A stretch of DNA of 24,000 nt from Thermanaerothrix solaris (GTDB lineage: Bacteria; Chloroflexota; Anaerolineae; Anaerolineales; Anaerolineaceae), in assembly GCF_032334255.1 (NCBI RefSeq), contig NZ_JAUHMF010000001.1, positions 1,766,366 to 1,790,365 of the forward strand. The letters are read 5' to 3'. A model generated the notes under the pieces. The model was not told the DNA's origin. It saw nothing but the letters and a program-made list of their open reading frames with translations, and ran no database searches. This document shows, in pieces, positions 20,597-24,000 of the stretch; position 1 is the first letter of the stretch, and the number at the start of each line of letters is the position of its first letter. The position numbers and the translations under genes are program-made.

Positions 20597-20624
20597 TTGA
20601 CACACCGCCCAGAATCGGTATAAT
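20597..20624 (+). promoter_or_regulatory. consensus sigma70 promoter for tRNA-Lys
   Basis: TTGACA (20597-20602), 16-nt spacer, TATAAT (20619-24), 25 nt upstream of the tRNA 5' end. Confidence 0.65.
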
Positions 20625-20648
20625 AAAGGATGCTGGACGAAGTGTTAC

Positions 20649-20721
<73 letters not shown>

Positions 20722-20759
20722 CCTCATAATTTGAACCTTATCAACCCGCAAGTTCTAAA

Positions 20760-20793
20760 CCCGTCAAGACGCCGGTTGACGGGCTTTGTTTTC
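20760..20793 (+). terminator. Rho-independent terminator after tRNA-Lys
   Basis: CCCGTCAA (20760-67) pairs with TTGACGGG (20776-83), followed by CTTTGTTTTC. Confidence 0.6.
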
Positions 20794-20805
20794 AAACCGG
20801 GAGAT

Positions 20806-20830
20806 GCCAGGGGTATCAAGTACCCCTGGC
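20806..20830. repeat. perfect 10-bp inverted repeat GCCAGGGGTA-N5-TACCCCTGGC
   Basis: Read directly. It lies 38 nt upstream of the tandem-HTH gene start, with no T-run after it. Confidence 0.5.
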
Positions 20831-20867
20831 AAGTCCCGTCAAAGGCCGCAGATTCCTGAAATCTCAA

Positions 20868-21338
20868 ATGGTTGCTCTTCCCACTCTAATCCCCCTTTCC
20901 GAAGCCGCCCGCAAGTATGGGCTGGACGAGGCTCGCTTGCGTGACTTGGTGGAGAAGGGTAAAATCCGAGCAGGAATATTCCCCGGTTCGGATGAGGTGC
21001 TCGTGAGCGAGGATGAGGTGAGAAGCGAAGCCATCCAGGAAAAAGGTCTCCGCAAAGAGGATTTGCCGGAGTATCAGAAGCACGCAGAAAAGCGTGGAAG
21101 GCCTATTTGGATTAGCGAGGCGGCGAGGAGATATGGTATTCCACACCAAACAATTATTCGGTGGGTTAAGTGTGGTTATATAAAACAATTGGGTGTAGAT
21201 AGAAACAAAGTTCTCATAGACGAGGCAGATATTGCTTATTGTTCTGAAATATACAAAAAACGCGGAAGACAAGGAAGAGTGTTATTCAACCCTGATGGAA
21301 CACCCTACAAACCAAAAACAGGTCCATTAGCCATGTAG
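20868..21338 (+). CDS. tandem helix-turn-helix DNA-binding protein (excisionase/MerR-type HTH x2)
   Basis: Two similar modules: LIPLSEAARKYGLDEARLRDLVEKGKIRAG...LVSEDEV and WISEAARRYGIPHQTIIRWVKCGYIKQLG...LIDEADI. AT-rich codon usage. No clear Shine-Dalgarno. Confidence 0.62.
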   Translation: MVALPTLIPLSEAARKYGLDEARLRDLVEKGKIRAGIFPGSDEVLVSEDEVRSEAIQEKGLRKEDLPEYQKHAEKRGRPIWISEAARRYGIPHQTIIRWVKCGYIKQLGVDRNKVLIDEADIAYCSEIYKKRGRQGRVLFNPDGTPYKPKTGPLAM

Positions 21339-21366
21339 CGGCAGAAAGCCGCTTTTTTTTATTTTT
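21337..21366 (+). terminator. Rho-independent terminator
   Basis: AGCGGC (21337-42), loop AGAAA, GCCGCT (21348-53), followed by TTTTTTTTATTTTT. It overlaps the TAG stop. Confidence 0.78.
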
Positions 21367-21369
21367 AAT

Positions 21370-21395
21370 CTGCACAAGTATTGACACTTGTGCAG
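21370..21395. promoter_or_regulatory. perfect 10-bp palindrome CTGCACAAGT-N6-ACTTGTGCAG overlapping the -35 box (candidate operator)
   Basis: Read directly. 21370-79 is the reverse complement of 21386-95. The TTGACA -35 box sits in the centre. Confidence 0.5.
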
Positions 21396-21410
21396 AATTT
21401 ATGTTATACT
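21381..21410 (+). promoter_or_regulatory. strong extended -10 sigma70 promoter
   Basis: TTGACA (21381-86), 18-nt spacer ending in TGt, then TATACT (21405-10). Confidence 0.62.
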
Positions 21411-21416
21411 CCTCAT

Positions 21417-22173
21417 AGCACCTTTCCAAACCACCTGCTAACTGCCCCGACAAATACAACGCCCCGCCGGGCGTTGTGCGCCCGACAGGGCGCTCCGTGA
21501 GCCGTGTGGGTGCACGCTCACGGTCGAGGCAAGCAAACCAACTGCTCACCTCATCTGCGATTGTAGCATGAGATGACAGCCCTCTGCAAGCCTCTCACAA
21601 GGAATGTGATTTGCAGAGGGCTTTGTGTTTCCCGTGCGGTGTTGGCTCAAAGCCTTTCAGGCGGCAGGTGCGTGAGGGCGGGTTCAAGTCCCGCCCGCCT
21701 GAATTCCGTTTTTGCCACGCTAACGTCGGCCGTGTAGGGAGGCGGGAGCGGGGCTGAGTCATCAGCACCTGGCGGGGCAAGGGACGGGGAGCCCTTGTCT
21801 GACGGAGCGGCAGGTGAGACCGGCGGAAGCCTGCCGGGGGACGTGACAGCCGGGAGAGACCGGCACATTCAGCACCTTACCAGTTGAGCATGATCCATCT
21901 CCAATCCAACCGCCGAAGGTGGGCAGGAGGCTCCCCGATCCTGCGGTGGGTGCAAGTCCCACCCGGTTGGACTGCCAAACCTGTCGGGGTCGTTGCCCCA
22001 ACAACGGGCAGGTGCAGCCCGGCGCACCCTGGCCAGCGCCGGGAAACAGGCAGGGTGACAGCCCGGAGAGACGGGCATGCAGAGGGGTTGGGGCTGAATC
22101 GGCCCAGCGAAGGCGAGGCAGACCCTCAAAGAGCCGGACGTGCGCGAGGGCAACCCCTCTGCCACTTCACCAC
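21417..22173 (+). ncRNA. candidate large structured non-coding RNA locus (unclassified; possibly more than one RNA)
   Basis: It lies between a consensus promoter and a tRNA. It has no credible ORF. It is GC-rich and holds at least 12 perfect stems of 5-12 bp, two T-loop hairpins, three TGACAGCC-hairpin units and a 12-bp long-range stem (22079-90 / 22151-62). Copies of the repeated hairpins differ only by compensatory pair changes. The ends are estimates. Confidence 0.5.
21578..21630 (+). terminator. terminator-like extended hairpin inside the RNA locus
   Basis: A 12-bp perfect stem AGCCCTCTGCAA (21578-89) / TTGCAGAGGGCT (21611-22) carries an inner stem TCACA-AGGAA-TGTGA and is followed by TTGTGTTT. 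Confidence 0.45.
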
Positions 22174-22245
22174 GCGGGAGTAGCTCAACGGAAGAGCGGC
22201 GGCGTCATGAGCCGCAGGGTGAGGGTTCGAATCCCTCTTCCCGTT
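22174..22245 (+). tRNA. tRNA with anticodon CAT (Met, or Ile2 if lysidine-modified), island-borne
   Basis: Manual cloverleaf: acceptor GCGGGAG/TTCCCGT (G1.U72 and G7.U66 wobbles), D arm GCTC-AACGGAA-GAGC, anticodon arm GCGGC-GTCATGA-GCCGC, variable AGGGT, T arm GAGGG-TTCGAAT-CCCTC. No encoded CCA. Confidence 0.7.
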
Positions 22246-22261
22246 CTGGGAGTGAGCAACC

Positions 22262-22777
22262 ATGAAAATCAGAATGCCGCTGGAAGAAGCCGAACGAATT
22301 GCGCTGAAATACGCCGAAATGCTTGCGCCAAAATGCGAGAGGGTCGAGATCGCCGGGAGTATTCGGCGGCGCAAGGCAGAGGTGGGAGACATTGAGATGG
22401 TGGCAAAGCCGCTGCCTGCGTTTGACCTGTTTGGCTCTCCGAATGGCTATCACGATCTTTCCATACCGTTACCAGCGGTCAAGGACGGGCAACGATACAA
22501 GCAGTACACCCTGCCCGAAGGAATACATCTTGACCTGTTCATCGTTTTACCCCCGGCACAATGGGGAGTAATCTTTGCTCTGCGCACCGGCGGAGCAGAG
22601 TTCTCTCGTAAACTGGTCACGGCGAAACGATACGGCGGTTACCTGCCGTCTGCTTACGTGGTGAGAGACGGCGCGGTTCATCGTGTTGATACCGGGGAGA
22701 TCATCCCTACCCCCGAAGAAATTGATTTTTTCAATCTCTGTGAACTGGGCTGGATCAAGCCCGAAGAGAGGAATTGA
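22262..22777 (+). CDS. minimal DNA polymerase X-family (Pol beta-like) nucleotidyltransferase, palm plus C-terminal subdomain only
   Basis: GSIRRRKAEVGDIEMV matches the G-S...D-x-(D/E) NTase motif. HLDLFIV supplies the third carboxylate. FALRTGGAEFSRKLVTAKRYG parallels LyFTGS..FN..lR..A...G of Pol X. The C-terminal PEEIDFFNLCELGWIKPEERN parallels the Pol X terminal sEeeIf..LGL.yIpPe.R motif. Confidence 0.72.
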   Translation: MKIRMPLEEAERIALKYAEMLAPKCERVEIAGSIRRRKAEVGDIEMVAKPLPAFDLFGSPNGYHDLSIPLPAVKDGQRYKQYTLPEGIHLDLFIVLPPAQWGVIFALRTGGAEFSRKLVTAKRYGGYLPSAYVVRDGAVHRVDTGEIIPTPEEIDFFNLCELGWIKPEERN

Positions 22778-22959
22778 ACATGCTCGAATCCGTGAGGTGA
22801 GAGATGAGAGAGACCTTTTTCGATCTGAAAGCCAAAGTGTTTCAAATCAAGCTCGGTCATTTCCTTCTTGTTATCTGGAAAACTGATTCCCGCTGGCGTT
22901 TTGCGATCTACATCGGCCACCGCCGGTTTGCCCATTAGAGGTGAGAAAGGAGGCGTGAT

Positions 22960-23346
22960 TTGAGGCGAGCCATTATCTTGACCCTCGTTCTAGTTCTTCT
23001 GGTCATCCAATCCTTGACGGCAATCGCGCAGTCCTCGGCGCCGGGAGCAACAGCGACGATGGAGGCGATTCGGGCGACCGAAGCGGCACGGTCGGCTCTG
23101 GGGATGGAAAAGGAATTGCCGGCAAATGATTTCACCCCGTTGGTGACATTCCTCATGGGGTTGGTGATGGCAGGGGTGGTGATGGCTCTGATGAGATCCG
23201 AAATTGTATCTGTGTTTTATCGAGGAAAACGTCCAGGATCACCAGCAGATCATCCGATTTCCACTGAAGGTGAGGCTGAGCGTCAAGAAGAGCCATTGGA
23301 ACTTCATAGAGGTAAATTCCATAAGAGCTTTCTTGAGGAGCGATGA
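22960..23346 (+). CDS. small secreted/membrane protein (signal peptide plus one TM helix)
   Basis: TTG start lies 6 nt after AAAGGAGG. Signal-like N-terminus (MRRAIILTLVLVLLVIQSLTAIAQS) and a later TM helix (LVTFLMGLVMAGVVMALM). The 3' third overlaps the convergent ORF. Confidence 0.5.
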   Translation: MRRAIILTLVLVLLVIQSLTAIAQSSAPGATATMEAIRATEAARSALGMEKELPANDFTPLVTFLMGLVMAGVVMALMRSEIVSVFYRGKRPGSPADHPISTEGEAERQEEPLELHRGKFHKSFLEER

Positions 23347-23767
23347 CCGGTTTAGGTTCAAGGGGAAAGCCATCGCAGTCTTGCTGGGCTGGAACGACGA
23401 GTTTTTGTGGTTTGTACTTTGTTTCTATCATATCGTAAAGGGCAATATTCCATCCTAGGAGGTGCTTAGAGTGATTGGTGATTTGTGGGAGCAATTCAAG
23501 GAACAGATAACCGGTAGCCCATGGGCGCTCACCAAGGCAATGATCCAGAACACGGGCCCGCAAAACCGCGAATTCCACCCCTTTAGCCGATGCTTTCTCA
23601 GGGTATAAGCCATGAGCTTGAGATAAGATGTAGGCCTGAAACGGCGGGGTGGGAGAGGGGCTAAAGGTAATGCGTGCAGAAGAAGTGATAGAAGCAAGCA
23701 ATGAATTGAATCCCATGCCAATTAGAAAGGAAGTGACGGTGAGAACAAGCAAAAATCGTCCTTTCAT
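23153..23767 (-). CDS. hypothetical secreted protein
   Basis: ATG at 23767. Signal-like N-terminus (MKGRFLLVLTVTSFLIGMGFNSLLA). No family confidently recognised. The 3' end overlaps the 22960..23346 ORF. Confidence 0.55.
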   Translation of the reverse strand: MKGRFLLVLTVTSFLIGMGFNSLLASITSSARITFSPSPTPPFQAYILSQAHGLYPEKASAKGVEFAVLRARVLDHCLGERPWATGYLFLELLPQITNHSKHLLGWNIALYDMIETKYKPQKLVVPAQQDCDGFPLEPKPVIAPQESSYGIYLYEVPMALLDAQPHLQWKSDDLLVILDVFLDKTQIQFRISSEPSPPLPSPTP

Positions 23768-23940
23768 TGGGGCAGATTCCTTTGTGTGTATTGGGATCAG
23801 ATCAACGTGATTCTATCCTCTCTTCTAAGACCCAATGCTATCACTAAATGAGAAAAGCGAAAGCCATTTTGCTAAAAGTCAATTGTGCTTTTTGTTAGTA
23901 ATCTTTGAAAAAGCCATTCACAAATTTCAAGGAGTGAACC

Positions 23941-24000
23941 ATGCTTGAAGTTCAACTGATCGGCAATCTAGGTCAAGACCCTGAAGCCCGCTACACGGCA
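23941..24000 (+). CDS. ssb: single-stranded DNA-binding protein, first 20 codons (continues beyond window)
   Basis: My translation MLEVQLIGNLGQDPEARYTA matches the canonical SSB N-terminus (..v.LiGrLg.DPElRyT). AAGGAG lies 7 nt upstream. Confidence 0.7.
   Translation, partial: MLEVQLIGNLGQDPEARYTA

Follow-up and report, generated by a model that had tools for sequence, protein, structure and literature searches.

Among the polymerases of family X, three described groups stand closest to the gene considered here: the Pol X of African swine fever virus (ASFV), the chromosomal PolX enzymes of bacteria, and the PolX of certain lytic phages. ASFV Pol X (O174L, 174 aa) has been described as the smallest known DNA polymerase, and the palm and thumb of a viral PolX have been found to be catalytically sufficient on their own (PMC13252658). 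In a 2026 survey of bacterial DNA polymerases, PolX1 and PolX2 are the only Pol X groups reported, the latter being defined by an extra alpha-helical C-terminal domain after the core (PMC12926913). On the phage side, gap filling has been shown for the PolX of YerA41, whose partners in this task are a ligase and an A-family replicase of the phage (bioRxiv 10.1101/2025.03.26.645540). Here we discuss a 24,000-nt stretch of the genome of Thermanaerothrix solaris (contig NZ_JAUHMF010000001.1, positions 1,766,366-1,790,365 of the forward strand), which we refer to as the window, and a gene within it, located at 22262-22777 on the plus strand, that encodes a protein of 171 aa (19.3 kDa) to which we will refer as mini Pol X. 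On the evidence of its sequence and modelled fold, this protein is best described as a family-X DNA polymerase reduced to the palm and thumb, and we propose, with a probability of about 0.6, that it is a stand-alone, gap-filling DNA polymerase carried as accessory cargo in the early region, that of replication and recombination, of an integrated mobile element.

The mini Pol X open reading frame (ORF) is a real gene under purifying selection. Its frame is uninterrupted over 171 codons and is preceded by a GGAG ribosome-binding site, read from the sequence, at 22249-22252 on the plus strand, 9 nt before the ATG. A collection of 5.8 billion proteins contains 970 homologues at E<=1e-3 (best 7.7e-96), nearly all of them 163-206 aa in length, and the dN/dS ratios relative to the two closest loci are 0.115 and 0.122 (dS 0.72-0.79); together with a Pfam thumb score above its cut-off (see below), these figures put mini Pol X far beyond chance. 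An initial annotation of this DNA, made from the sequence alone, had described a 171-aa ORF at this position with four motifs, all of which are present: G32-S33-x9-D43-I-E45; the third-carboxylate motif H89-L-D91-L-F; a Pol X-like helix, R108-T-G-G-A-E-F-S-R-K-L-V; and the C-terminal motif E152-E-I-D-F-F-N-L-C-E-L-G-W-I-K-P-E-E-R170. Each of the four aligns residue for residue with both Pol lambda and the PolX of the host. The helix had been likened to the TGS..FN..LR segment of Pol X; although the helix itself is there, its "FN..LR" part is not kept, the corresponding residues being F114-S115 and L118-V119.

The membership of family X is established by profile and fold searches that converge on the same enzymes. 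The Pfam model DNA_pol_B_thumb (PF14791) matches residues 109-171 with 27.3 bits against a cut-off of 25, the Pfam palm model matches below its own cut-off, and the NCBIfam PolX equivalog model reaches 14.9 bits, below its cut-off of 426. When used as a single phmmer query against the PDB sequences, mini Pol X retrieves Pol lambda (1.2e-5) and Thermus PolX (1.4e-3), and a profile of 55 relatives retrieves the same two at 1.4e-11 and 6e-10, respectively, over positions 4-174, that is, the whole length. The alignment to the 573-aa host PolX covers only residues 155-313 of the latter, which form its polymerase core (29% identity, E 1e-12), in agreement with the earlier remark that mini Pol X leaves no room for an 8-kDa/lyase or PHP domain; the palm is predicted to span residues ~1-100 and the thumb ~101-171. 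Both in Pol lambda and in the host PolX, the aligned part starts where the palm starts. An AlphaFold2 model built on the alignment of the 55 relatives is of high predicted confidence (pLDDT 97, pTM 0.90), and a Foldseek search of the PDB with this model yields 330 matches at E<=0.001; PolX, Pol beta and Pol lambda account for all of the best 50, with Thermus thermophilus PolX (3B0X; E 1.5e-10, query TM 0.76) at the top. In a fold search of viral models the best matches are the PolX proteins of giant viruses, including those of 174-178 residues. The protein also carries the nucleotidyltransferase (NTase) signature hG[GS]-x9-13-Dh[DE]h followed by a carboxylate on a later strand. The minimal Pol X identity suggested by the initial annotation is therefore upheld by the Pfam thumb, the profile and the AlphaFold/Foldseek comparison alike: profiles and fold lead to Pol X, with Thermus PolX and not a CCA-adding enzyme as the best structural match, and the catalytic carboxylates are kept.

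Two other identities were considered and rejected. Regarding the CCA-adding or class II tRNA nucleotidyltransferases, mini Pol X has no match to the PolyA_pol family of Pfam at E<=10; poly(A) and CCA-adding enzymes are matched by its fold only at E>=0.23 (E>=0.05 when other small nucleotidyltransferases are included), and the viral CCA-adding and tRNA nucleotidyltransferase models reach only E 0.36-0.38. As for the MNT and KNTase proteins, there is no NTP_transf_2-type Pfam match and no PADLOC match, the top Foldseek matches listed are all PolX, and no HEPN neighbour was seen.

The active site is conserved throughout the family, as judged from counts in 248 relatives. The residues putatively binding the triphosphate are G32 (248/248), S33 (241/248), R35 (245/248) and R36 (247/248), and the GSFRR motif of Pol beta (residues 179-183) is retained in mini Pol X as GS-I-RR. 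The putative metal ligands are D43 (247/248), E45 (Glu in 242/248, Asp in 6) and D91 (237/248, Glu in 11). By these counts the metal- and triphosphate-binding machinery of mini Pol X appears intact, with Glu fixed as the second ligand.

Such conservation has a direct bearing on the question of whether mini Pol X may be catalytically dead and serve, by binding DNA or nucleotides, a structural or regulatory function. The idea draws on the altered motifs of the dNTP pocket, on the D-D-Q triad of the host's own PolX1, and on the frequency of polymerase-dead PolXs in bacteria (PMC9226535); however, the metal ligands and the GS-x-RR binders are kept in 237-248 of the 248 relatives and are under strong purifying selection, which is opposite to the pattern of dead PolXs and makes a dead enzyme extremely improbable.

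The host PolX1 merits some attention in its own right. This chromosomal protein (573 aa, contig C3, L002:721-2439, minus strand) combines the D-D-Q triad with YA in place of YF and reads LQLW where the canonical sequence is VDLRV, its PHP domain being apparently intact. A D-D-Q PolX1 is also found in Bellilinea, Anaerolinea thermolimosa and a Chloroflexota metagenome-assembled genome (MAG), all of which carry close copies of mini Pol X, and the PolX1 of a Chloroflexia host reads N-D-R; in 20 other genomes of the class, PolX1 has D-D-D with YF/HF in 15, D-D-Q in 1, and an unclear triad in 4. By the criterion of Prostova et al., the D-D-Q triad marks the PolX1 of these hosts as polymerase-dead, and mini Pol X may consequently be such cells' sole X-family enzyme whose triad is intact, complementing the dead PolX1, which could help to explain its retention. 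Because the genomes compared are related, and kinship confounds the comparison, we treat this as a lead and not as a correlation.

The residues that in Pol beta sense the nascent base pair are replaced across the family. With equivalences taken from the Pol lambda alignment, Tyr271 of Pol beta corresponds to I/L107 (245/248), Phe272 to R108 (244/248), Asn279 to S115 (231/248), and Arg283 to V119 (243/248), whereas canonical prokaryotic PolXs have Asn at the 279-equivalent position in 92.9% and YF or HF in 94% of cases (Prostova et al., PMC9226535). As the sensor residues are fixed rather than decayed, and the triad is kept, we read their replacement as a change of specificity or fidelity and not as inactivation; the altered sensors are nevertheless what leaves the action of the enzyme most uncertain. 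The Anaerolineae clade, to which the window copy belongs, does not differ in its active-site signature from the family as a whole. A further conserved feature is a D-(L/M)-F-G stretch in residues 52-63 (22415-22450; F in 210/248, G in 202/248), which forms the tip of a beta-hairpin, where canonical Pol beta palms have two helices. A role of this stretch as a sliding-clamp motif was rejected as unsupported, given that it is without the usual leading Gln and sits inside a confidently ordered hairpin.

The replacement of the readers of the template and nascent pair (the Asn279 and Arg283 equivalents and YF) by Ser, Val and (I/L)R family-wide raises the prospect of a terminal-transferase-like or strongly error-prone enzyme, which would extend the ends or nicks of element or host DNA. 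Consistent with this, DNA is synthesised without a template by a fragment of Faustovirus PolX engineered to consist of palm and thumb, and an Asn-to-Ser change in the Faustovirus thumb, possibly at the equivalent of S115, raised this activity when combined with R184L (PMC13252658). The presence of an adjacent gene for a single-stranded DNA-binding protein (SSB), on the other hand, suits templated synthesis on single-stranded DNA. Furthermore, the model places only a 3-residue turn between the two strands preceding the D91 strand, whereas terminal deoxynucleotidyl transferase and Pol mu carry between those strands the long Loop1 that replaces the template; the short turn, although deduced from secondary structure, is counted against end-extension, which we hold to be possible yet unlikely.

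For the gap-filling polymerase that we favour, we infer the catalytic activity, the DNA substrate and the biological role as follows. Mini Pol X would be expressed as the first ORF from a strong promoter, by way of a structured leader and a tRNA-Met. In the protein, D43, E45 and D91 would hold two metal ions, G32-S33 and R35-R36 would bind the triphosphate of the incoming dNTP, and the thumb helices (residues 101-118) would close onto the nascent pair, allowing a DNA 3'-OH to be extended by one or a few nucleotides over a short gap or along single strands coated with SSB. Such gaps and stretches would arise during replication, recombination or repair of the element, and the residual nick would be sealed by the host ligase. 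Mini Pol X has no proofreading, deoxyribose phosphate (dRP)-lyase or helix-hairpin-helix (HhH) DNA-binding modules, and this, together with the family-wide replacement of the minor-groove and steric-gate residues, makes it probably distributive and of low fidelity; owing to the altered sensors, the gap-filling role itself may also take a template-independent or error-prone form.

A number of observations weigh against the gap-filling role. The YFTGS..FN...R segment (Pol beta 271-283) is altered throughout the family to (I/L)-R-T-G...F-S...V, and the loss of Asn and YF has been linked to polymerase-dead PolXs, which also lose the carboxylate triad (PMC9226535). The second metal ligand is Glu instead of Asp in 242 of the 248 members, and the protein is near neutral (isoelectric point 6.3) and has no HhH motif. 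Beyond the protein itself, gene neighbourhoods were analysed at 84 loci (80 viral and 4 from assembled contigs), and BLAST clustering of these revealed no partner gene conserved across loci, the largest cluster being the integrase, with 17 loci; nor was a conserved repair partner (ligase, Ku) found beside mini Pol X, the neighbourhoods differing widely.

The family is large and, in its viral members, well represented in temperate phages. A HMMER search of 1.84 billion cluster representatives (50% identity) returned 8044 matches at E<=1e-3, of which 4633 pass <=1e-10 and 1362 pass <=1e-30; the 150 highest-ranking ones are almost all 161-250 aa long, and the family as a whole is mostly 161-215 aa. 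A mini Pol X relative is encoded by 296 viral contigs of IMG/VR. Relatives in genomes come from Chloroflexota, Saccharibacteria, Armatimonadota, Proteobacteria, Myxococcota, Actinomycetes and Nitrososphaerota archaea, in a contig scan that relied on one strict peptide pattern and whose 16 loci are an undercount. The archaeal relatives (L101 and L102, from Nitrososphaerota MAGs) and a Saccharibacteria MAG relative (L095) share 33-40% identity, and their occurrence in archaea and the candidate phyla radiation indicates that the family crosses domains. Within the class Anaerolineae, a search of 121 genomes found a PolX1-size frame in at least 43 but a mini-size frame in only 2, a patchiness expected of mobile cargo. 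The label "phage-type" given by the initial annotation thus broadly fits the family, with its 296 viral contigs; the window copy, however, is located in an Anaerolineae integrative element, the genes of which have no PHROG match.

Reference collections contain little that resembles the family. PHROGs has no match for mini Pol X or any of the 55 relatives; for mini Pol X, NCBIfam offers only the sub-threshold PolX match and PADLOC none; tblastn against 50,697 deposited phage genomes gave nothing at E<=0.01; and a tblastn search of plasmids found only full-length polX genes, one of the matches (H2) proving to be a 576-aa PolX1. Our literature searches found no description of the family. The longer family members yielded no informative domain fusion. 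In two of them, P0124 (413 aa) and P0253 (411 aa), mini Pol X is split past the catalytic LDLF strand by ~230 low-complexity residues, and in P0124 the INLDLF segment is duplicated on both sides of the insert; neither insert has an intein or Pfam match, and each may be an intron that is read through, or else an inserted element.

At the 84 loci, the neighbours of the mini Pol X gene include a tyrosine integrase, a CI-like S24 repressor, RecT, DnaD-like and DnaC-like proteins and the DnaB helicase, as well as DNA methylases, ASCH, ParB, FtsK-like proteins, the large terminase and a GH25 lysin, and its usual place is between the replication genes and the terminase. In 50 long viral records, 21 of which are >=90% complete, no family A or B polymerase, Prim-Pol or ATP-dependent ligase was found (0/50), while the integrase, serving as a positive control, was found by the same method in 21/50. 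The absence of a replicase and a ligase from these records implies that the phages rely on the replisome and ligase of the host. The carriers are temperate phages and integrating elements.

The element in the window follows the host tRNA-Lys(CTT) at 20649-20723 on the plus strand (ARAGORN and Rfam), which forms the left boundary of a lower-GC mobile element: GC falls after this tRNA, and homology to L004 begins at 20868. Loci of relatives carry L-numbers, L004 being a Bellilinea caldifistulae element and L005 a second element of the same species. The first gene of the element (20868-21338, plus strand) encodes a 156-aa DNA-binding protein of the helix-turn-helix HTH_17 type (excisionase/MerR-type; Pfam HTH_17 4.7e-9), syntenic with a 154-aa HTH_17 gene of L004, and is followed by a terminator at 21337-21353. 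A predicted sigma-70-type promoter comes next, at 21381-21410 on the plus strand (TTGACA, 18 nt, TG-TATACT; 11/12 consensus matches, extended -10); there is no other plus-strand promoter-like site in 20600-24000, and no terminator between this promoter and mini Pol X. The promoter leads into a structured leader RNA of ~0.76 kb (21411-22173, plus strand), which is GC-rich and ORF-poor, contains T-arm-like hairpins, is conserved in L004, L089, L091, L093 and L094, and has no match to an Rfam family. An element-borne tRNA-Met(CAT) at 22174-22246 on the plus strand (ARAGORN; Rfam tRNA, 61 bits) completes the upstream region, ending 15 nt before the start of mini Pol X, which agrees with the initial annotation of a gene directly behind an RNA/tRNA locus. 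The order of tRNA-Met and then mini Pol X recurs in L004, with which 20868-22788 is collinear apart from a break at 22077-22136, just before the tRNA.

Downstream of mini Pol X, a 1.15-kb insertion of lower GC content (22789-23928; GC 0.48-0.51) splits the PolX-SSB pair, homology to L004, L091, L093 and L094 ending at ~22788 and restarting at ~23929-23941. The insertion, which looks like a moron, contains an ORF on the minus strand (23153-23767, 204 aa) with a signal-peptide-like N-terminus and no Pfam match, and its junction is partly duplicated, a copy of the SSB ribosome-binding site and start at ~22768-22788 being comparable to 23929-23949. The first 20 codons of the SSB gene (23941-24000, plus strand) encode an SSB-type N-terminus before running off the contig end, and can be aligned with the beginning of the SSB gene in L004 (Pfam SSB 1.3e-21). 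The SSB gene lies 0-9 nt downstream of mini Pol X in L004, L089, L091 and L093, and is adjacent here too if the insertion is discounted; in the relatives, the two genes are translationally coupled. This adjacency is confined to the Anaerolineae clade, a small home-made hidden Markov model detecting an SSB within 10 kb at only 3 distant loci.

The contig of the window (C2) ends at the window end, position 24000, and contig C7 matches 23947-24000 at 100%; the rest of the element, with SSB, ParA and other genes, is distributed over the small contigs C7, C8, C6, C4 and C1. At the end of contig C3 (1306916-1308278) there is a sister element with an HTH_17 gene and the SSB junction sequence, and no second copy of mini Pol X was found in the assembly, for which reason mini Pol X may be optional cargo, or a repeat collapsed in assembly. 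The Bellilinea counterpart contains integrase, ParA and ribbon-helix-helix genes, the unknown genes of its operon having no PHROG match, and the second Bellilinea element contains ParA and FtsK.

This organization leads to the question of whether mini Pol X may be the replicative or initiating polymerase of the element, which together with the neighbouring SSB would replicate the element after its excision or initiate DNA synthesis on it. Its gene is the first ORF of an early operon and adjoins SSB, it is the only recognisable DNA polymerase in the 50 viral records, and neither a Rep nor a primase is recognisable in the Anaerolineae elements. Pol X enzymes, however, are distributive and act on short patches; the carrier phages, of 30-60 kb, encode DnaB and DnaC-like and DnaD-like loaders that recruit the host replisome; the position and neighbours of the gene vary; and the sister element has the HTH gene and the junction, yet the assembly holds no second mini Pol X. 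We consequently regard a replicative role as improbable and the gap-filling role as the better account.

The RNA genes beside mini Pol X had led the initial annotation to suggest, as a speculation, that the enzyme acts on the adjacent tRNA-like RNAs. In the Anaerolineae clade the adjacency is real: a T-arm hairpin, tRNA or tRNA-like RNA is present on the same strand within 1 kb of mini Pol X in all 7 distinct elements (those of the window, L004, L089, L091, L093, L094 and L005, at 56-86% protein identity). It precedes the gene in 6 of the 7, the T-arm hairpin of the window being located 584 nt ahead of the ATG, and follows the gene in the L005 type. In the latter, a tRNA-like RNA of ~100 nt (L005:10540-10644) begins ~25 nt past the mini Pol X stop, and the same is seen in L006, L007 and L092; in this RNA an acceptor-type stem of 7 bp (GGCGGGC/GCCCGCC) stacks on a canonical T-arm, a long insert takes the place of the D and anticodon arms, and neither ARAGORN nor Rfam calls it. 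The adjacency is also specific to this clade. At the ~80 distant viral loci no T-arm hairpin was seen on the strand of the gene, the sole other match (L080) being on the opposite strand; in the 84 loci, any tRNA is present within 10 kb in only 12, and immediately upstream only in L004, the 23-nt leader hairpin motif is present in 2, and the median gap upstream of the mini Pol X gene is 24 nt. The co-occurrence survey that the initial annotation had proposed accordingly gives a divided result, the link holding within the Anaerolineae clade but not across the family, and the shared ancestry of one operon layout can explain a link so limited.

An enzyme acting on RNA would tail or repair the 3' ends of the tRNAs and tRNA-like RNAs of the element, or extend an RNA 3' end as a primer, and the 7/7 adjacency, with no same-strand counterpart near the distant relatives, and the 15-nt spacing between tRNA-Met and the gene start would be in keeping with it. 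Against this stand the lack of a family-wide link (12/84 and 2/84 loci), the identity of the clade's active-site signature with that of the whole family, and the fold, in which the thumb is of the Pol X type and not the neck of a CCA-adding enzyme, such enzymes and poly(A) polymerases being matched only at the E>=0.23 given above. Moreover, the tRNA-Lys of the host is also without an encoded CCA, so that a missing CCA near mini Pol X is uninformative. For these reasons the RNA-directed role put forward earlier is not sustained, and we consider it decidedly improbable; the conserved coding partner in the Anaerolineae clade is SSB, which points to DNA. It is still less probable, although conceivable, that in the Anaerolineae mini Pol X and SSB work with the co-transcribed tRNA or tRNA-like RNAs, for example by extending the 3' end of the tRNA-like RNA as a primer for DNA synthesis of the element. 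If true, such an RNA-primed start would be the DNA-element counterpart of tRNA-primed reverse transcription.

Returning to the described systems and to mini Pol X as a gap-filling palm-plus-thumb polymerase, its nearest counterpart in size is ASFV Pol X. Both proteins (171 and 174 aa) consist of the palm and thumb only, without 8-kDa, fingers (HhH) or exonuclease domains, and both are encoded on a mobile or viral genome. They differ in that mini Pol X has a D-x-E...D triad and resides in bacteria and their phages; in that the ASFV fragment in BFVD matches its fold at only E 2.4e-3 and TM 0.47, compared to TM 0.76 for Thermus PolX; and in that ASFV also encodes a ligase and an apurinic/apyrimidinic (AP) endonuclease (PMC13252658), whereas a ligase is found in 0/50 of the mini Pol X viral records, AP endonuclease genes not having been searched for. 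Being closer to bacterial PolX1 than to the ASFV entry, and having motifs of the PolX1 type (PP-x-x-W-G), mini Pol X looks to have been reduced to the palm and thumb independently of ASFV. The bacterial PolX1 proteins (Thermus PDB 3AU2/3B0X and the host PolX) provide the best structural match, the 29% identity over host residues 155-313, and the common motifs PP-x-x-(W/F)-G and GL-x-WI-x-PE-x-R; mini Pol X departs from them in having neither the 8-kDa and fingers domains (~150 N-terminal residues) nor any of the PHP exonuclease domain, in the replacement of YF, N and R, and in its mobile, patchy occurrence. It is likewise set apart from PolX2 by the description of the latter, since it ends one residue past the conserved thumb Arg170. 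The Pol X of YerA41, an SP15-like lytic phage, resembles it as a phage-encoded family-X enzyme, and one for which gap filling has been shown (bioRxiv 10.1101/2025.03.26.645540), but those phages encode a ligase and an A-family replicase that binds PolX, and the mini Pol X phages encode neither; the failure of tblastn to find mini Pol X in the 50,697 phage genomes suggests that its lineage is separate from the YerA41 type.

Reviews and a 2026 engineering paper still name the 174-residue ASFV Pol X as the smallest (PMC13252658), and mini Pol X, at 171 aa, belongs to a natural family of more than 1000 diverged clusters of Pol X proteins of 160-200 residues, spread over many phyla, thermophilic Anaerolineae included, with a fixed signature of its own (D-x-E, (I/L)R-TG, Ser, Val). 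The 2026 survey of bacterial polymerases does not include this mini form (PMC12926913). If its members are active, the palm-plus-thumb minimum would have arisen more than once, it would need explaining why a temperate element dependent on the replisome of its host should keep a repair polymerase of its own, and the family would offer small, possibly thermostable scaffolds for enzymatic DNA synthesis.

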